Shown here: piece after piece, positions 11,996 to 64,000 of the stretch | Position numbering within the stretch: position 1 is the stretch's first letter | Layout: each line of letters starts with the position of its first letter | NCBI GenBank assembly: GCA_023403845.1 | Contig: JAEYDL010000016.1 | Coordinates: 5,315-69,314, forward strand | Origin: Pseudomonadota bacterium | Lineage (GTDB): Bacteria; Desulfobacterota; Desulfovibrionia; Desulfovibrionales; Desulfovibrionaceae | Length of the DNA stretch: 64,000 nucleotides | Direction of reading: 5' to 3' | Position numbers and translations under genes: made by a program | The notes under the pieces: model-generated | Database searches by the model: none | Told to the model about the DNA's origin: nothing | What the model saw: the letters and a program-made list of their open reading frames with translations, nothing else

Positions 11996-12790
11996 ATGGC
12001 AGTCAACCGCATTCGTCTGTTTTACTTCAGCCCTACGGGAGCGACCCGTTCCGTTCTTGAATCCGTTGCTGCCGGCATAGGCTGCGCACAAATCATTACT
12101 CAAGCCTGCGACTGGATCTCTCCGGAGTCACGGGAAACGATAATCGAATGTTCCTCCGATGATCTTGTCCTCGTAGGCATGCCTGTATACTACGGACGTA
12201 TCCCTTCTCTCTTCCACGCAGGGCTCCCCATACATGGCAATGGAGCACTCTTCGTGCCGATAGTCGTCTATGGCAATCGCCACTATGACGATGCTCTTCT
12301 TGAACTGAAAATACTGGGCGAAAACGCGGGCTGCACCTGTCTGGGGGCCGGAGCCTTCATCGCCCGGCACAGTCTGAATCCCACTATTGGATCAGGCCGA
12401 CCGGATGCCGAAGATCGCGCGGTTATGCACCGTTTCGGCAAGGCGCTGGCAAATAAACTTGAAACGTTTTCTCCGACCTCCTCATCAAGTGTCCCCGGCA
12501 AGTTTCCCTACGCACCTTATGGGAAAACACCCTTCACTCCAGCGTTGCTGAATCGGAGTGCCTGCATCGCGTGCGGCGCATGCGTCGAGGCATGTCCCGT
12601 GCGTCTTATAGATCCAGAGACATTCGAGCCTGCCAGCCCTGAAAAGTGCATTTTCTGTTACGGCTGCGTACGCAACTGTCCTGTTGGAGTGAGAGGCCCA
12701 ATTCCAGCCGTCGCAGAAATCTTTTCCCAGCGCATGAGCGGACTGGCCGCCAGCTGTACTGAACGCAGGTCTCCTGAAACCTTTGTCTAG
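11996..12790 (+). CDS. Flavodoxin-like domain fused to a 2x[4Fe-4S] ferredoxin domain
   Basis: 264 aa. N-terminus RIRLFYFSPTGATR is flavodoxin-like. Two CxxCxxCxxxCP motifs: CIACGACVEACP and CIFCYGCVRNCP. Confidence 0.75.
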   Translation: MAVNRIRLFYFSPTGATRSVLESVAAGIGCAQIITQACDWISPESRETIIECSSDDLVLVGMPVYYGRIPSLFHAGLPIHGNGALFVPIVVYGNRHYDDALLELKILGENAGCTCLGAGAFIARHSLNPTIGSGRPDAEDRAVMHRFGKALANKLETFSPTSSSSVPGKFPYAPYGKTPFTPALLNRSACIACGACVEACPVRLIDPETFEPASPEKCIFCYGCVRNCPVGVRGPIPAVAEIFSQRMSGLAASCTERRSPETFV

Positions 12791-12933
12791 CCCCTGTTCC
12801 AATATATTGGGCATCCCCCTGATTAGATGCTGCATCATGCTCTAGACACACTGCAGCATGTTAGATACGGTGCATCAGGTGCACAACAACCCCACGGCAG
12901 CCCTGCCTGTTTCACCATTTTTTGGAGTAGATT

Positions 12934-13452
12934 ATGCTCGTCTCTCTATCACCTGAAGAAGTCCGGCAGCGTCTGGAAACGGGAGACATACGGCTTATTG
13001 ATATTCGGGAGCCCGAAGAATACGCCGAGGTTTCCATCCCTGGAGCTCGCCTGATTCCCCTTTCCATCATCAAAAAACATCCATTAACGGAACCTGACTC
13101 AGTTTCGAAGCCTATCGTCTTCACCTGCCGCTCCGGAAATCGCACGAGAGAGGCAGCCCCTCTGCTCGAATCTCTGGTCAACGGAGAGGCCTATGTTCTT
13201 GACGGCGGAACATCCGGTTGGGAACAGGCCGGACTTCCTGTAGAACGAACACCTGTACCTCTGCCCATGTTCCGTCAAATTCAGATCGGGGCCGGGATAC
13301 TTGTGCTTGTCGGCGTGATCGGCAGCGCATTCTGGCATCCCCTGTACTGGTTAAGCGCCTTCGTGGGCGCAGGCCTTGTCTTTGCAGGAGTTACCGGTTT
13401 CTGCGGCCTGGGCGTGCTGCTGTCCAAAATGCCGTGGAACAAACGCAGCTGA
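12934..13452 (+). CDS. Membrane-anchored rhodanese (YgaP-like: rhodanese domain plus a C-terminal two-TM DUF2892-like domain)
   Basis: 172 aa. Active-site loop CRSGNRT and a hydrophobic C-terminus (IQIGAGILVLVGVIG...GLVFAGVTGFCGLGVLL). Confidence 0.8.
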   Translation: MLVSLSPEEVRQRLETGDIRLIDIREPEEYAEVSIPGARLIPLSIIKKHPLTEPDSVSKPIVFTCRSGNRTREAAPLLESLVNGEAYVLDGGTSGWEQAGLPVERTPVPLPMFRQIQIGAGILVLVGVIGSAFWHPLYWLSAFVGAGLVFAGVTGFCGLGVLLSKMPWNKRS

Positions 13453-17895: not shown

Positions 17896-18210
17896 CTACT
17901 TGCAATAAAATGAAACCGTCGCGGAACCACCCCGCCACGTCGTTTGAGAAACAAGATCAACAATATCTGTTTGCTTACCCATTGCCTCGCAAATCTTCTG
18001 CGCCTGCGCGGAAACGAAAGCGCGGGCTCCCGTTGAGCCTCCCTCATACGTCGCAAGTTCAGCGGACAGGGTATGCATATCAGAATCGGCCTTCAGGGGT
18101 GCGTTCGTCGCGGCAGGTTCGTCCGAAGGCACCTCGGGCCGTGGGCTGTCGGTAGCCGCACAGCCGGGAACAAGCAGCAACCCCATGCACAGAAAAAACG
18201 CTTTCCACAT
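17896..18210 (-). CDS. Small lipoprotein, function unknown
   Basis: ORF 17896-18222, trimmed to the first ATG (18210). MWKAFFLCMGLLLVPGC carries a lipobox (L-V-P-G-C). Confidence 0.6.
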   Translation of the reverse strand: MWKAFFLCMGLLLVPGCAATDSPRPEVPSDEPAATNAPLKADSDMHTLSAELATYEGGSTGARAFVSAQAQKICEAMGKQTDIVDLVSQTTWRGGSATVSFYCK

Positions 18211-18342
18211 GATGTTATCCAAGTTTTAAAGTTGATATGCTGCGAAACGACGTTCTCTTCCTCGCATCCATGCAGAAGCATAATCGGCATCGGAAGTTCA
18301 AGCAATGAAAAAGTAGTATTCCCTCTGCTTGAAGACGAAAAT

Positions 18343-18368
18343 TCAAACGGACCCCGAAGGGTCCGTTT
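18343..18368 (-). terminator. Rho-independent terminator after the HesB-like selenoprotein gene
   Basis: Minus-strand AAACGGACCC-UUCG-GGGUCCGUUU (10-bp stem, UUCG loop) followed by the U-rich GAAUUUUCGUCUUC. Confidence 0.75.
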
Positions 18369-18384
18369 CATTCGTTAATCCATG

Positions 18385-18708
18385 TCAGATGCTGCAGCTG
18401 CCGGAGGAACAACCGCCGCATCCTCCCTCGCCCCCACCACCAAATGGGTTAGCAGATTCAATCACAAACCCCATGTAGGTGAGATCAATGGAAATATCTC
18501 CTGCCTGCGTTGCCAGATCCTTGGCAATGCAGAAGGTAAATCCATTCACATCAAGCGTATCATCTTCGGGAGTAGGCTCGTCCAGAGCCAGCGCAAGACG
18601 CGGCCCCTGTCAGCCTCCGGCGGCAAGATATACCCGAATGGGAGTCTTTTCCCGTTCCGCAAAAAACGATTCCAGCTCCTGCCGAGCTGTTTCACTCAAA
18701 GTAATCAT
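18385..18708 (-). CDS. HesB/IscA-like protein with an in-frame UGA (putative selenocysteine, codon 33); 107 codons
   Basis: Not in the ORF track because it is split by the TGA at 18610-18612. GGAGGAATTCT precedes the ATG at 18708. Translation: MITLSETARQELESFFAEREKTPIRVYLAAGG[U]QGPRLALALDEPTPEDDTLDVNGFTFCIAKDLATQAGDISIDLTYMGFVIESANPFGGGGEGGCGGCSSGSCSI, stop at 18385-18387. The paralog at 19221-19556 has Cys at the aligned position. Confidence 0.8.
18580..18609 (-). promoter_or_regulatory. Candidate SECIS-like hairpin 3' of the UGA
   Basis: mRNA UGA-CAG-GGGGCCGCG-UCUUG-CGC(U)GGCUCU gives a 9-bp stem (2 G-U pairs, one bulged U) and a 5-nt loop, starting 4 nt after the UGA. Folded by hand only. 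Confidence 0.4.
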
Positions 18709-19185
18709 AGAATTCCTCCGGTATGGTTTTACGCAGCCTGCAGCTTTGAAGAGCAGGACTGTGAAGGGAGAGGTCCAAATACATGCTCATCCGGCTGTCC
18801 CAAGCGACTTGATCCGAACGGGCCTCCTTGAAAAGGAGCGTCCGCATTGGAACTCCGCCGCGGCTCCGGTACAGAGCAAGTATTCAGTTCTTGTTCTCAA
18901 TTAAGCGCTCTTGAAAGCAAAGACAAGGGGAAAAGAAATAAAAGCTCTCTTTAGGAAAATATACACAAGTCTTATAGTTTGAAAATCTATATACAATTTT
19001 TTATTAAAAATATTTATAATATATTTTTTAATGTATTACGCAAACAATACCAAGATGCAGACCGCAGAGAGTCCTGCTCAGGCTCCTGTTTGTTCCCATC
19101 GTGATTTAAAAGATCGCAGCTGCCTTTGAAACTGTCGCCAGAATCGGAATACCTTTCTGGTTCTGTTGCCATATCCAGCGGAGCC

Positions 19186-19215
19186 GAAAAAAGGCGTCCG
19201 TCCCCGAACGCCCTT
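19186..19215 (-). terminator. Rho-independent terminator after the Cys-type HesB-like gene
   Basis: Minus-strand AAGGGCGU-UCGGGGACGG-ACGCCUU followed by UUUU. Confidence 0.6.
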
Positions 19216-19220
19216 CATTT

Positions 19221-19556
19221 CTAGTGGCAGCCGCCGCAGCAACCACCGCACCCGCTGCTGCCGCAACCTTCCCCCTCGCCGCTATCGGGAAGGGGAACTC
19301 TGGGAATCGGCAGGAATCCCATGGGAGTGAGCTGAATGGACACAGCCTCCACGGCGGTCAACAAGTCCTTGTTGATGCAATATGTAATGCCGTGATCCTC
19401 AACGCTCATATCCTCTTCACCGGGTTCATCCAGCGCCAAGGCGAGACGGGGACCTCCACACCCGCCGGGGGCAAGGTACACTCGAATAGGGGTCTTTTCC
19501 TTGTCCGCAAAGTATGCTTCAAGTTCCCTGCGGGCTTCATCGCTGACCGTGATCAT
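19221..19556 (-). CDS. HesB/IscA-like protein, Cys-containing paralog of the gene at 18385-18708 (111 aa)
   Basis: ORF 19221-19595, trimmed to the ATG at 19556 (SD AGGAGGAAGC). MITVSDEARRELEAYFADKEKTPIRVYLAPGGCGGPRLALALDEP..., with a Cys/Gly-rich tail GCGSSGCGGCCGGCH. Confidence 0.85.
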   Translation of the reverse strand: MITVSDEARRELEAYFADKEKTPIRVYLAPGGCGGPRLALALDEPGEEDMSVEDHGITYCINKDLLTAVEAVSIQLTPMGFLPIPRVPLPDSGEGEGCGSSGCGGCCGGCH

Positions 19557-19937
19557 GCTTCCTCCTGAGGGGTGATATTCAAACCGGCAGCACACGCCAA
19601 TATCGGCATGCCAAGTCCGAAACCGGGTACCTGCCCGGCGCAGGAGCTACCATAGGGTTCTCTGTCCTGTTGTCAAGTTTTCTCTCCAACTGCGGCAGCC
19701 AGCCGGCGGCTTCTTCTCATTTCGACTGCCCAGCCCGGAATGCTCTTTGCGTATATGAACAAGACATGCGGATTTTCCCTTTCGAGAGTACTCTTCCCAG
19801 AAGAAGGGGAATAGGCTATTCTTTCTTCCATCGGGAGAAGAGAGGCGGTCTGCCTTGCCTGCTTCGCTTCACAAAACGCGCAACCGGGACCATGCCGGGA
19901 CGGTCAACTCCCTAATTCATTTCGAAAGGTTTTTTCC

Positions 19938-27353: not shown

Positions 27354-29405
27354 ATGAACAACGCCCCTCTCGACGCGGAACATCCCTCCGCCATCGAGTC
27401 TACCCCTCCAAAACAAACTCTGTCGGCAGACGCCAGCGCTTCCGGCGAAACATCTCCTTCCGCTGGAACAGAGGCGGATCCGTCCGGCATGGAAACATCT
27501 GTTCCCACGCAACCTGAGACTTTGCTTTCTGAACAGCCGGCCAGTTCCAGACAGAGTGAACAATCCTGGCCGGATGAAGTCAGGGAAGAATCCCCATCTC
27601 CAACAGAGGATTCCGTCTCTTCTCCGGAAACAACCGGGCACCGGCCGGGAGTTGCAGCACGCTGCTTTACCGGGCTGTCTTTCGCAGGACCGCTCGTTCT
27701 GCTTGTTCTTTGGGCCATACAGGCCATCCCCAATCTGCTCGGACGGGAACCACGCGCGTTGCATGAACTTGCCGCCGGACTCCAGACCTGCTATCTCGGC
27801 GTCGACCCGTGGCTGGCGGAACAGCTGGCTTCGCATCCCATGTCCGACATGACGCCGGTTTACACATGGTTTCTCAAGGGTCTGAGTCTGATTCCCGGCC
27901 TTGACGGTCTGCTCTCCGCCATCCCCTGTGTGATCCCCGCCGGAGCTGCCGGGATTTCCCCCTATCCCGAATTGCTGCCTCTGGGGACAGCCCTGGCTTC
28001 TCTTTTCCTCGTTCTGCTGACATGGTGTCTGGCCCGGGCCACCGGCAATGACCGCAAGACGGCCTTCGCTTCCGGACTTGTTCTGCTTGCGGGACTGGCA
28101 TGGATGGGTCTCCCCTGCCTTGCCGGGGATGAGCTGCTTGGTGCTGCGCTCATGACTCTGACTTCCATTTGTCTGTACCGCGGCTGGCGTAAGGACTTTG
28201 CTCCGCTCTGGCTGCTGTGCGGCTTTGCTCTGGTTGCGGTTTCTACATTGGCTGTGGGACTGCCCGGACTGGTCTTTCCTCTGCTTACCAGCCTGTTCTT
28301 CCTGATCTGGCGCGGCACATTCCGCCGGGCCGGAGCCAGAGACGGGGCTCTCGCCTTCGGCGTAATGCTTATTCTCCTGTGCGCATGGGGTACGCTCATA
28401 GCCTTCTCCGATGGCGGCCGCGAACTGCTCAGAACAGAACTTGAGGCCCAGTTCCTTGCTCCCATCCTTTATGGACTGGAACTTCAGGGGCGAGATTCAT
28501 GGATCATCCCTGCAACTCTGGCTCTGATCTGGTTGCCGTGGACGCTCCTGATTCTTTTTCTTCCCTGGGAACGCATCGGAGGCTTCCTGCGCCGTATCGG
28601 TTCCAACCGTCGGGAACGCCCCGGTCAGGGCTGGCTCTGGTGCTCTCTGCTCGTAGGTCTGATCGTGTTTGCGCTTCTCGGCGCCGTTTCGCCCCTGCTC
28701 CTCCCCCCTCTGCTGCCGCCCCTGGCCGTGTTGACGGCTCAAGGACTGCTCAGCATTGGAGAACGGCGCAGCCGGGCCTTCTTCCTGCTGCTGGCCATTC
28801 TCCTTGCCTTGCTCGGCCTGTTCTATGCCGTGGTCGCCTTCTACCCGCTGATCAGCACTCTGCCTCCAGCACTGGTGGCCGTCCGCCCCGTACCACTCCC
28901 GCTTGCCGAGGCAGCAATCCCTGTAGCAGGCTTCATTCTCTTTGCTCTGCTGCTCTGGAAAGCTGTGGATCGCACCCGTTCAGACGGATCATTACTGGTG
29001 TTCACTATTCTGGCTCTGCTGCTTGCGGCGCCTCTGGCCTGCCTTACGGAACATCCGGCCGCCCCTCTCCCTGCATCTCGGGATAGTTCTCCCATTCAGG
29101 CGGAACCCAATTCTTCGGAGGATTCGCAGCCTTCCGATATGAACTCCAAGGTCGACACACTGCCCGAACAGTCTGCCGTTTCTGAAGACACCACAGAACC
29201 GCCTGCCATTACGGACACCGCTCCGGTCGCCCTGCCTGATGAAAAGCCTGCGGAACCCCTGACTCCAGCCGCTCCGGCTCCTTCTGAAGAGAAACTTCCC
29301 AGCCCGATTCAGAGTTCCGTACCCGCTCAGGAAGTACCCGCTTCCCCGGTCCCGCAGCCAGCCACTCCGGACACTCCGGAAGCGCAGGCAATATCAACCC
29401 GATAA
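27354..29405 (+). CDS. Polytopic membrane protein, GT-C (ArnT/PMT_2-like) glycosyltransferase fold suspected, with long low-complexity termini
   Basis: 683 aa with SD GAAGGAG. The core has many TM helices and an ArnT/PMT_2-like segment (LPLGTALASLFLVLLTWCLARATGNDRKTAFASGLVLLAGLAW). About 100 aa at the N-terminus and about 120 aa at the C-terminus are Pro/Ser/Glu/Ala-rich. Confidence 0.5.
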   Translation: MNNAPLDAEHPSAIESTPPKQTLSADASASGETSPSAGTEADPSGMETSVPTQPETLLSEQPASSRQSEQSWPDEVREESPSPTEDSVSSPETTGHRPGVAARCFTGLSFAGPLVLLVLWAIQAIPNLLGREPRALHELAAGLQTCYLGVDPWLAEQLASHPMSDMTPVYTWFLKGLSLIPGLDGLLSAIPCVIPAGAAGISPYPELLPLGTALASLFLVLLTWCLARATGNDRKTAFASGLVLLAGLAWMGLPCLAGDELLGAALMTLTSICLYRGWRKDFAPLWLLCGFALVAVSTLAVGLPGLVFPLLTSLFFLIWRGTFRRAGARDGALAFGVMLILLCAWGTLIAFSDGGRELLRTELEAQFLAPILYGLELQGRDSWIIPATLALIWLPWTLLILFLPWERIGGFLRRIGSNRRERPGQGWLWCSLLVGLIVFALLGAVSPLLLPPLLPPLAVLTAQGLLSIGERRSRAFFLLLAILLALLGLFYAVVAFYPLISTLPPALVAVRPVPLPLAEAAIPVAGFILFALLLWKAVDRTRSDGSLLVFTILALLLAAPLACLTEHPAAPLPASRDSSPIQAEPNSSEDSQPSDMNSKVDTLPEQSAVSEDTTEPPAITDTAPVALPDEKPAEPLTPAAPAPSEEKLPSPIQSSVPAQEVPASPVPQPATPDTPEAQAISTR

Positions 29406-53274: not shown

Positions 53275-53340
53275 GTCTGCTTTCCTGATGATGGTAAAAG
53301 GCTCCGGCGCGCTCTTTGCAAAACGCCGGAGCCGAAAAAA

Positions 53341-53721
53341 TCGGGAGTCGGACTGTAAGCCGGGTTTTGTACCCGCTCCGACAGCGGTCGAAACAGGCGG
53401 TCGTCATTCCTCTAGGAACGCAGTTACCCGCGCTCTCAAGCAACCTACCCGGAAGCGTTGGCCGGGCCGGCCCGCTTCCCTATTTGGTCTTGCTTCGAAT
53501 GGGGCTTGCCTAGCTCGGCACGTCACCGTGCCGACTGGTGGTCTCTTACTCCACCGTTTCACCCTTACCACCCGGGGGTGGCGGTTTGCTTTCTGTGGCG
53601 CTCTCCGAGGATCGCTCCTCCTGGATGTTATCCAGCATTCCGCCCTGTGAAGCCCGGACTTTCCTCCCCGTTATCCCCGCACAGGCGGAGAATAACGCAG
53701 CGACGACCCGTCCGGCTCCCG
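53341..53721 (-). ncRNA. rnpB: RNase P RNA, bacterial type A
   Basis: The minus strand has the conserved blocks GGAGGAAAGTCCGGGC, ACAGAAAGCAAACCGCC, GGTAAGGGTGAAACGGTGGAGTAAGAGACCACC, AGCAAGACCAAATAGGG, GGGTAGGTTGCTTGAG, AGAGGAATGAC and ACAAAACCCGGCTTAC. P1 pairs GGGAGCCGGAC with GTCCGACTCCC. The ends are accurate to a few nt. Confidence 0.93.
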
Positions 53722-56787: not shown

Positions 56788-58485
<1,698 letters not shown>

Positions 58486-58536
58486 TTGACCCGCGGCCGG
58501 GAAACCGGCCGCGATCAGCCTCTACCCCGAAGCCAT

Positions 58537-59361
58537 ATGAGCACCCCTATGACGCCAGATCAACTTTATGCGCAACTGACGCAAGATCACTTCATTTTTG
58601 CCGGCCCCTGCGTTCTGGAAAGCTTCGAGCTTGCCCTGGATACGGCATGGGCGGTCAAGGAGGCGGCCGAAGCGGCCGGCCTCTTTGCTGTCTTCAAAAG
58701 CTCATGGGACAAGGCCAACCGTACCTCCGGCAAAGGTTTTCGCGGTTACGGACTCAGCCAGGGACTGGAGTGGCTCGCCCGCATTAAGCAAGAAACTGGT
58801 CTGCCGGTCGTCACGGACATCCACCTGCCCGATCAGGCGGCCCCTGTAGCCGGGGTTGCGGACATTCTCCAGATTCCCGCCTTTCTTTGCCGCCAAACCG
58901 ACCTGCTGCTCGCTGCGGCGGCCACGGGTCGCGTAATCAACGTCAAGAAGGGACAATTCGTCGCACCCTGGGATATGGGGCAGGTCAAGGCCAAAATCCT
59001 CTCCGCCGGGAATCCCAGAGTGCTGCTCACCGAACGGGGAAGCTCCTTCGGCTACAACAATTTGGTCGTGGACTTCCGTTCCATTCCCATCATGCAGGAA
59101 CAGGGCGTTCCGGTCATTTTCGACGCCACCCACTCGGTTCAGCTGCCGGGAGGACAGGGAACCTGTTCCGGCGGAGACCGCCGGCATGTGCCGCATCTGG
59201 CCCGTGCGGCAGCCGCAGCGGGAGCCGACGGCATTTTCATGGAGTGTCACCCCGATCCGGACAAGGCTCTGTGCGACGGCCCCAACAGCTGGCCCGTCGA
59301 CAAACTTCCCGCTCTTCTTCGACAACTTGCCGCCATCTGGAGACTGCCCAATGACCTGTAA
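58537..59361 (+). CDS. kdsA: 3-deoxy-8-phosphooctulonate synthase
   Basis: ORF 58486-59361 (TTG start), trimmed to the ATG at 58537. [24 protein letters not shown] and [11 protein letters not shown] blocks. Confidence 0.9.
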
Positions 59362-62885: not shown

Positions 62886-64000
62886 ATGGTACTGGAACTC
62901 AGACAACAGCTCAAACTATCTCAACAACTTGTCATGACCCCCCAACTGCAGCAAGCTATCCGGCTGTTGCAGCTCTCCCGTCTGGAGCTGGTGGAAACGG
63001 TACAACGTGAGCTGCTGGAAAATCCCTTTCTGGAGGAAGTTCAGGAAGAACCTGTCCCCACTGAACAAAACGAAGTCCGCAAGGAAGTCCAGCAGCCTGA
63101 TGAAACGTATGACCGCGAGGTAGCCCGTTCCGAAGACTGGGAAGACTATCTGGGAGAATTTGCCAGCACCCCTCAGTCCATGCAGCCGCGAGACCATGAG
63201 CTTCCAGAGGAAATGAGTTCTCTGGAGGCCAGATATGCATCCAGTCCCACGCTGGAAAGTCACCTCATGTGGCAGTTGCGCCTCTCCTCCCTGACCGACG
63301 AGCAGAAGGAAATCGGGGAAATCATCATCGGCAATCTCTCATCCTCCGGTTATCTTCAGGCTTCTCTGGAAGAAATAGCGGACATGGTCAACACCGATGC
63401 GGTGGGCGAACACCCGGAAAAGGTTCCTTTTACGCCCGAGGATGTGGAACCGGTTCTCCGTGCCATTCAGCTTTTCGATCCCATCGGCGTGGCATCCAGG
63501 ACGCCGAGCGAGTGCCTGCTCGTTCAGATCAGGGCGCTTGGTTATGACCGGGACGCCACACTTGTAGATCTGGTTTCCAATCACCTTGAAGATCTGGAAG
63601 CCCATCGCTACAAGCCGCTCATGCGCAAATTTCATCTGGATACGGAAGGCCTCAAGGAATATCTGGATATCATTCAGTCTCTTGATCCCATGCCGGGAGC
63701 GAGCTTCGGAGATGGGGTACCCACCTACGTCAGTCCGGACGCCTTCGTCTATAAGGTGGACGGAGACTTTCTCATCATTCTGAATGAGGAAGGCCTCCCC
63801 AACCTTCACCTCAATCCTGCCTACGAGGCCGTAGCCGAATCCGCCGAAGGCAAGGAAAGGGATTATTTCGCCGACAAGATCCGCTCCGCCTCATGGCTGA
63901 TCAAAAGTCTGCACCAGCGCCAGCGTACCCTGTACAAGGTCGTGGAAAGCATCGTCAAGCATCAGCGTGGCTTCTTTGAGGGCGGGGTGAGCAAGTTTCG
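62886..64000 (+). CDS. rpoN: RNA polymerase sigma-54 factor; the 3' end runs off the window
   Basis: Not in the ORF track because it leaves the window. My translation is MVLELRQQLKLSQQLVMTPQLQQAIRLLQLSRLELVETVQRELLENPFLEE..., the canonical RpoN region I, then an acidic region II. My translation stayed open to 64000. Confidence 0.9.
   Translation, partial: MVLELRQQLKLSQQLVMTPQLQQAIRLLQLSRLELVETVQRELLENPFLEEVQEEPVPTEQNEVRKEVQQPDETYDREVARSEDWEDYLGEFASTPQSMQPRDHELPEEMSSLEARYASSPTLESHLMWQLRLSSLTDEQKEIGEIIIGNLSSSGYLQASLEEIADMVNTDAVGEHPEKVPFTPEDVEPVLRAIQLFDPIGVASRTPSECLLVQIRALGYDRDATLVDLVSNHLEDLEAHRYKPLMRKFHLDTEGLKEYLDIIQSLDPMPGASFGDGVPTYVSPDAFVYKVDGDFLIILNEEGLPNLHLNPAYEAVAESAEGKERDYFADKIRSASWLIKSLHQRQRTLYKVVESIVKHQRGFFEGGVSKF

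Follow-up and report, generated by a model that had tools for sequence, protein, structure and literature searches.

Analysis of a 64,000-nucleotide stretch of DNA from a bacterium of the family Desulfovibrionaceae (assembly GCA_023403845.1, contig JAEYDL010000016.1, positions 5,315 to 69,314; the whole stretch is referred to here as the window) points with high probability to an intact gene on its minus strand, 18708..18385, that codes for a 107-residue selenoprotein of the IscA/HesB superfamily. The protein resembles the A-type iron-sulfur (Fe-S) carriers, falls in the subfamily defined by the NCBIfam model NF038090, and is predicted to carry selenocysteine (Sec) at position 33. This residue would be inserted at an in-frame UGA by means of SelB and a hairpin in the mRNA, and would act, along with cysteines of the C-terminal tail, on iron or Fe-S clusters or in redox chemistry. 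Within this interpretation the identification as a selenoprotein is held with strong confidence, and the functional part (binding or transfer of iron or Fe-S clusters, or a redox role) has roughly even chances of being correct. The gene is a member of an already catalogued selenoprotein subfamily, and what is new is only the copy of this species.

Reading frame and conservation across the UGA

The gene opens with an ATG at 18708-18706, preceded at a distance of 5 nt by the Shine-Dalgarno sequence GGAGGA (18714..18719, minus strand), which was read directly. It proceeds through 31 further codons (32 sense codons in all) to a TGA at 18612-18610, evident both from the letters and from the translation as codon 33. 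Beyond this lie 74 sense codons and a terminal TGA at 18387-18385, followed on the same strand by an intrinsic terminator (18345..18368) with a 10-bp stem, a UUCG loop and a T-rich tail. The translated product displays the motif U-Q-G-P beginning at Sec33 and has a cysteine-rich tail, CGGCSSGSC. Start codon, Shine-Dalgarno sequence, stop and terminator are all intact, and a GGAGG is likewise found upstream of the orthologous genes. An earlier reading of this DNA made without database searches (the sequence-only reading) had described this very layout, with a near-perfect Shine-Dalgarno sequence, 32 codons, TGA, 74 codons, TGA and a UUCG-loop terminator, and the sequence and its translation bear it out.

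The same reading had held that gene callers miss or truncate such genes, and this proved correct here. Public gene calls of the same species offer a 32-residue stub or a 149-residue open reading frame (ORF) on the opposite strand in place of the 107-residue selenoprotein, because the in-frame UGA, when read as a stop, splits the gene. In the relative with the closest ortholog, the locus L001 of a metagenome-assembled genome (MAG) labelled as Lawsonia, the gene is called as two ORFs of 32 and 68 residues. The opposite-strand ORF (18382-18831, plus strand), which spans the whole selenoprotein gene and is called as a gene in two of the same-species assemblies (L012 and L013), is almost certainly a shadow.

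Of the ordinary stops in the window UGA is the most frequent, ending 23 of its 42 predicted genes, the selenoprotein gene among them, and it is not reassigned there. A true stop at codon 33, which would leave a 32-residue peptide with the downstream part either a separate small gene or untranslated, would agree with the 32-residue calls and with the additional 68-residue ORF of the one relative. However, in the window the frame beyond the UGA offers no ATG, GTG or TTG before codon 54, no Shine-Dalgarno sequence for an internal start was found there, and the start of the 68-residue ORF is not conserved. Moreover, the two halves together make up one IscA fold with a single full-length hidden Markov model match over residues 1-98. 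We consider a true stop extremely improbable.

A paralog of 111 residues is encoded head-to-tail upstream on the same strand (19221..19556). Its alignment with the Sec protein is gap-free through the first ~90 residues, and its TGT (Cys33, 19460-19458) stands opposite the UGA. A recount of the translations gave 36 identities in the first 49 positions and 13 in the 16 residues right after the UGA, in agreement with the hand counts of the sequence-only reading and with its placement of the UGA on the cysteine of the paralog. The comparison with orthologs that it had proposed shows that these keep either TGA or a Cys codon at the aligned position and that the downstream part stays coding. Specifically, TGA is shared by five independent assemblies of this species from metagenomes (L012-L016), each one substitution away from the window. 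It is found at the same codon in several species-representative genomes, namely the Lawsonia-labelled MAG (79% identity), Bilophila wadsworthia ATCC 49260, another Bilophila and two uncultured genomes labelled as Desulfovibrio; more distant Desulfovibrio copies have TGC or TGT at the aligned codon. A scan of metagenomes brought the total to 26 distinct Sec-form and 28 distinct Cys-form sequences, and the G and P of the U-x-G-P motif are invariant in all 26 Sec forms. These occurrences also bear on the possibility that a TGC or TGT was misread or misassembled as TGA, in favor of which one could cite the metagenome-derived assembly and the single base that separates these codons. The recurrence of an identical TGA, not TGC or TGT, in the five assemblies, which derive from different samples, as well as in dozens of contigs from gut metagenomes and in the cultured strain B. 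wadsworthia ATCC 49260, reduces the likelihood of such an error to a negligible level.

Ratios of nonsynonymous to synonymous substitution rates (dN/dS, Nei-Gojobori) were 0.11-0.26 for codons 34-89, after the UGA, in the 5 of 7 ortholog comparisons with estimable dS, and 0.13-0.30 for codons 2-32, before the UGA, in 6 of the 7. Since the downstream values match the upstream ones, with synonymous sites close to saturation, the sequence beyond the UGA is translated in the same frame and is under purifying selection equal to that on the part before it.

A hairpin downstream of the UGA

The stretch following the UGA contains a candidate bacterial selenocysteine insertion sequence (SECIS), GGCUC-UGGAC-GAGCC (18575..18589, minus strand), which begins 20 nt beyond the UGA, inside the stretch coding for A-L-D-E-P, and forms a 5-bp stem closed by a 5-nt loop containing GG. 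The sequence-only reading had suggested a search for such an element in this region, and comparison of the homologs did uncover a conserved hairpin specific to the Sec forms. The pattern GGCYC-UGGAY-GRGCC, 20 nt after the UGA, forms a perfect stem in all 26 Sec forms, whereas a complete 5-bp stem is seen at this site in none of the 28 Cys forms, though most of them encode the same amino acids (Fisher p = 7.6e-15). All 125 cells of the five core pairs (125 of 125) are paired in a 25-sequence alignment, and one of these pairs shows a compensatory change, with U-A in 20 sequences and C-G in 5. As a result of the change a Glu becomes a Gly; therefore the pairing has been kept at the cost of an amino acid, which makes the element an example of such a trade at the RNA level. 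In the Sec forms, the four-fold degenerate third positions of both stem and loop (Leu CUG, Ala GCY, Leu CUG) and the third base of the GAG/GGG codon are invariant or covarying, and in the Cys forms they are free, whereas the four-fold sites on either side of the hairpin (Gly, Pro, Arg, Ala, Pro) vary freely in Sec and Cys forms alike. Taken alone, the hairpin has a folding energy of -8.1 kcal/mol (z = -2.7), as against -0.9 kcal/mol for the same stretch of the Cys paralog in the window. Together these observations show that the hairpin is kept by RNA-level selection in the Sec forms only. Combined with the 26 Sec forms and the post-UGA dN/dS, they support the earlier proposal that conservation across a stop codon opposite a cysteine denotes selenocysteine in this gene.

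In the bSECISearch model of Zhang and Gladyshev (2005), the apical loop reportedly has a G at a distance of 16-37 nt from the UGA, above a stem of 4 bp or more; the present element, with its loop ~25 nt after the UGA and a 5-bp stem, fits the model in that form. It differs from the E. coli fdhF SECIS paradigm in that only the 5-bp stem is conserved, with no conserved lower stem or bulged U, and its spacing of 20 nt compares with a reported 11 nt for the minimal E. coli element. RNAalifold likewise found no conserved lower stem below the hairpin, and an extension by two outer pairs was rejected, as these pairs form in only 10-11 of the 25 aligned sequences. A search of Rfam around the locus, at the gathering threshold and at a permissive E-value, returned nothing relevant. 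The element constitutes a compact and unusually clean SECIS signature for the subfamily, which is usable as the search pattern TGA-N20-GGCYCTGGAYGRGCC.

One gut metagenome contig (L042, near position 1030, ~2.6x coverage) has a TGA at the Cys codon of the Cys paralog and no hairpin. This TGA is likely a sequencing error or a true nonsense allele, and the contig provides a natural negative control of the SECIS rule. It also shows that nonsense or error variants do occur in this family, and could thus be cited for the view that the Sec gene itself is a pseudogene, i.e. a duplicated IscA/HesB copy inactivated by a nonsense mutation, with residual similarity downstream; the presence of a functional Cys paralog 0.5 kb away could make such a copy dispensable. 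However, the TGA is kept in 26 distinct sequences across species with saturated synonymous sites, the dN/dS after it is as low as before it, all the expression signals of the gene are intact, and the hairpin is under RNA-level selection in the Sec forms only. Hence, we regard a pseudogene as very improbable and favor an intact selenoprotein gene.

Family, fold and selenocysteine machinery

For the family scans of the Sec protein the U was written as C. The protein scored 30.1 bits against the Pfam model PF01521 (Fe-S_biosyn; cutoff 26.3) and 98.9 bits over residues 1-98 against NF038090 ("IscA_HesB_Se"; curated cutoff 85). Its Cys paralog scored 90.1 bits against NF038090, above the cutoff, and 23.6 bits against PF01521, below it. 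The Sec protein lies far below the cutoffs of the IscA, SufA and ErpA equivalog models. In a phmmer search of the PDB sequences residues 2-61 align with E. coli IscA (1s98, 1r94), and residue 33 falls on IscA Cys35. An AlphaFold2 model of the Cys paralog has a mean predicted local distance difference test score (pLDDT) of 82.7 and, in structural comparison, matches best to the [2Fe-2S]-containing IscA 1x0g, E. coli IscA (1r94/1s98), SufA (2d2a), HI1723, AQ_1857 and DsrR (Foldseek E = 1e-6 to 3e-5 for IscA/SufA). The Sec/Cys residue sits in the loop that joins strands 24-29 and 37-42. Conserved across the family near the C-terminus are the cysteines C97, C100 and C105, arranged as CGGC-x4-C. 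The cluster ligands of E. coli IscA are Cys35 and the cysteines of a C-terminal C-G-C (Cys99, Cys101). Consistent with these matches, both the assignment to the HesB/IscA-like family and the equation of the UGA with the first Fe-S ligand cysteine, which had been put forward in the sequence-only reading, hold. The protein resembles IscA, SufA and ErpA in fold, in its match to PF01521, in the alignment of Sec33 with Cys35 and in having cysteines near the C-terminus. It differs in that Sec replaces Cys at the first ligand, in its Gly-rich CGGC-x4-C tail, which is modeled with low confidence, and in that its gene lies outside any isc or suf operon.

HesB-like proteins are a standard family of prokaryotic selenoproteins, with 11 bacterial members recorded in D. 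vulgaris, D. desulfuricans, Geobacter, Syntrophus and Syntrophobacter, among others (PMC1794560, Tables 1 and 3). The remark in the sequence-only reading that such proteins had been predicted in deltaproteobacteria is thus substantiated by the literature (PMC1794560, PMC1914089). D. vulgaris DVU_1382 has been named as a HesB-like selenoprotein, and the HesB groups of Desulfovibrio and Methanococcus were found too diverged to cluster (PMC1914089), a divergence that mirrors the split between NF038090 and TIGR01911 (HesB_rel_seleno) seen here. The Sec-site motif of the family is given as UxGP (PMC13188914, Table 1). With the Desulfovibrionaceae members of NF038090 the window protein shares a full-length match, the UGA at the first conserved Cys, the UxGP motif and the Cys/Gly-rich tail, with no essential difference; the window copy is distinguished by coming from an uncultured Bilophila-like species and by being split or missed in public gene calls. 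Given the family model and the taxonomy, the window gene is probably orthologous to DVU_1382. In comparison with TIGR01911, the superfamily, the Sec position, UxGP and the small single-domain architecture are the same, but the window protein scores below the cutoff, and its hairpin lies inside the coding sequence, whereas archaeal HesB-like members have the SECIS in the 3'-UTR (PMC9312934). The member from M. maripaludis (MMP0252 / MMJJ_08070) has been confirmed by 75Se labelling, as cited in PMC11097638, and a mutant with a disruption of this gene showed normal nitrogen fixation (PMC11097638).

Several observations weigh against our interpretation. At the RNA level, the hairpin is short (5 bp), its covariation rests on one pair and perhaps on one or two independent events only, and the Sec forms may constitute one clade, which would make the 26-versus-0 contrast partly phylogenetic. 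While the conserved hairpin is part of the minimum-free-energy (MFE) fold of 24 of the 26 Sec forms, it is absent from that of the window itself: the MFE fold of the 76 nt around the window UGA is no better than that of shuffled sequences (z = 0.25), and a competing GGGGCCGCG hairpin nearer the UGA is chosen. This competitor would probably be unwound by a ribosome paused at the UGA, leaving the conserved hairpin free. Single-sequence MFE folding proved uninformative as a means of finding the SECIS, and the element came from comparative analysis. At the protein level, the score against TIGR01911 is 42.4 with a cutoff of 66.35, and the protein is related to this subfamily but is not a member of it. 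Likewise, the C-terminal motif is CGGC...C and not the CGC of IscA, and the tail (93-111 in the model of the Cys paralog) has a pLDDT below 50. The function of HesB-like selenoproteins has itself been stated to be unclear (PMC11097638, PMC13188914). Finally, none of selA, selB, selC and selD was found in the 64-kb window (ARAGORN; 30 ORFs compared with NCBIfam or Pfam), nor were any tRNA genes.

This last result could be taken in favor of a read-through of the UGA that does not involve Sec, either by near-cognate decoding as Trp or Cys, or by Cys carried on tRNA(Sec) at low selenium, which would yield a protein with Cys or Trp at this position. The base following the UGA in the window is a C, and UGA followed by C is a leaky context in E. 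coli, which could likewise favor such read-through. However, most true stops in the window are UGA (23 of 42 genes), the base 3' of the UGA at codon 33 varies among the orthologs (C, A, G, U) with the hairpin remaining constant, and the aligned residue is Cys in all paralogs, as is classic for Sec/Cys pairs. There are also the 75Se labelling of a family member mentioned above (PMC11097638) and the full machinery of relatives (PMC7593587). Hence, read-through without Sec appears improbable, and Sec insertion is preferred. Bilophila genomes are reported to contain the complete Sec machinery along with a Sec-dependent glycine betaine reductase (PMC7593587). RarA of the window is 92% identical to that of B. 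wadsworthia, and because of this and the synteny of the locus with that species (see below) the host is an uncultured Bilophila-like member of the Desulfovibrionaceae. By analogy with its Bilophila relatives, the Sec machinery is probably encoded elsewhere in its genome.

The tandem Cys paralog and the surrounding locus

Of the 94 sources with a family member (93 fetched loci and the window), 61 have Cys and Sec paralogs head-to-tail on one strand, though many of the 61 tandem loci are redundant B. wadsworthia contigs. The Bilophila group has the order Cys-Sec, several other lineages have Sec-Cys, and one group has Cys-Cys-Sec. In B. wadsworthia the pair is syntenic with that of the window: genes for an acyltransferase, RarA and a phosphoribosyltransferase lie on one strand, followed by the Cys and Sec genes on the other. 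The phosphoribosyltransferase appears PyrR-like, as judged by eye from its N-terminal sequence; its gene, which is upstream and divergently oriented in distant loci, was considered as a regulator of the pair but taken as synteny only. No synteny was found with the Lawsonia-labelled MAG locus L001, except that a neighboring gene for a 104-residue protein recurs there, at another place.

Directly downstream of the Cys gene on the minus strand lies a GC-rich inverted repeat, GGCGTTC-GGGGAC-GGACGCC, followed by T6 (19187..19212), which was recognized by inspection only and is not listed by a consensus scan. It is a probable terminator, which would make the two paralogs separate transcription units. 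A promoter-like site, TTGACA-16-TATGGT (19649..19676, minus strand), is situated upstream of the Cys gene, recognized by its match to the consensus at 10 of 12 positions, and Sec genes in many loci have, by reading, their own sigma-70-like promoters with TTGACA ~70-90 nt upstream. These promoter-like sites and the probable terminator after the Cys gene of the window suggest that the Cys and Sec paralogs may be separately regulated isoforms. Sec/Cys isoenzymes with separate regulation are known in Methanococcus (PMC11097638). The spacer between the paralogs in the window (18709-19220, 512 bp) contains a stretch of 31% GC (~18900-19100); no repeats or known RNA families were found in it. In the same-species assembly L013 (3337-3681) there are 16 bp in the spacer where others have 183 bp.

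Based on the above, we propose the following mechanism. On reaching the UGA, the ribosome would be joined by SelB with Sec-tRNA(Sec), which would bind the hairpin and insert Sec33, giving rise to the full-length protein. Sec33 of the UxGP motif, together with C97, C100 and C105 of the flexible tail, may bind iron or an Fe-S cluster or act in a redox or transfer step, with selenium in place of the thiolate that is the first ligand in IscA-type proteins. The neighboring Cys paralog might be a selenium-independent isoform that serves when selenium is limiting, or it might be a partner subunit. More tentatively, and with a rather low probability in our estimate, the pair, whose conservation and synteny extend across Desulfovibrionaceae, could be a functional module as opposed to a leftover duplication. 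It might switch between isoforms of an A-type carrier in response to selenium, or form a Sec/Cys heterodimer holding an Fe-S cluster that has a selenolate among its ligands. Asymmetric binding of the cluster between protomers is already seen in IscA 1x0g. If the proposal is true, an Se-ligated Fe-S carrier would put selenocysteine to a new use.

No isc, suf or nif genes were found near the Sec gene, whose neighbors code for the PyrR-like phosphoribosyltransferase, RarA, the acyltransferase, a GGDEF protein and the 104-residue protein. The last of these, an ORF of 104-108 residues directly downstream of the selenoprotein gene (17896-18222, minus strand), has no Pfam family and has a counterpart of 61% identity in the Lawsonia-labelled MAG, ~4 kb from the Sec gene of that genome and on the other strand. 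Sulfur-transfer genes, for a 4Fe-4S ferredoxin-domain protein followed by a rhodanese with a YgaP-like transmembrane domain, are located at 11996-13452 (plus strand), ~5 kb from the HesB-like pair. Further afield, the window contains a full-length bacterial RNase P RNA of class A (53340-53719, minus strand, 310 bits) and a 683-residue ORF with good codon usage (27354-29405, plus strand), which has no NCBIfam or Pfam match at E <= 1e-5. A codon-usage scan for further TGA-interrupted genes missed its positive control and has low sensitivity for short genes. Of its two matches, 56833-59361 is an ordinary stop followed by an in-frame neighbor and 63339-63962 is a shadow frame by appearance, and we claim no second selenoprotein.

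HesB-like selenoproteins have been published since 2006-2007, and the present finding leaves the knowledge of selenoproteins unchanged. Its main value lies in annotation, as the same error will recur in Desulfovibrionaceae from gut metagenomes. For the biology of the family, the conserved Cys/Sec tandem makes selenium-dependent use of the isoforms testable in the cultivable Bilophila wadsworthia, a clinically relevant sulfidogen of the gut.

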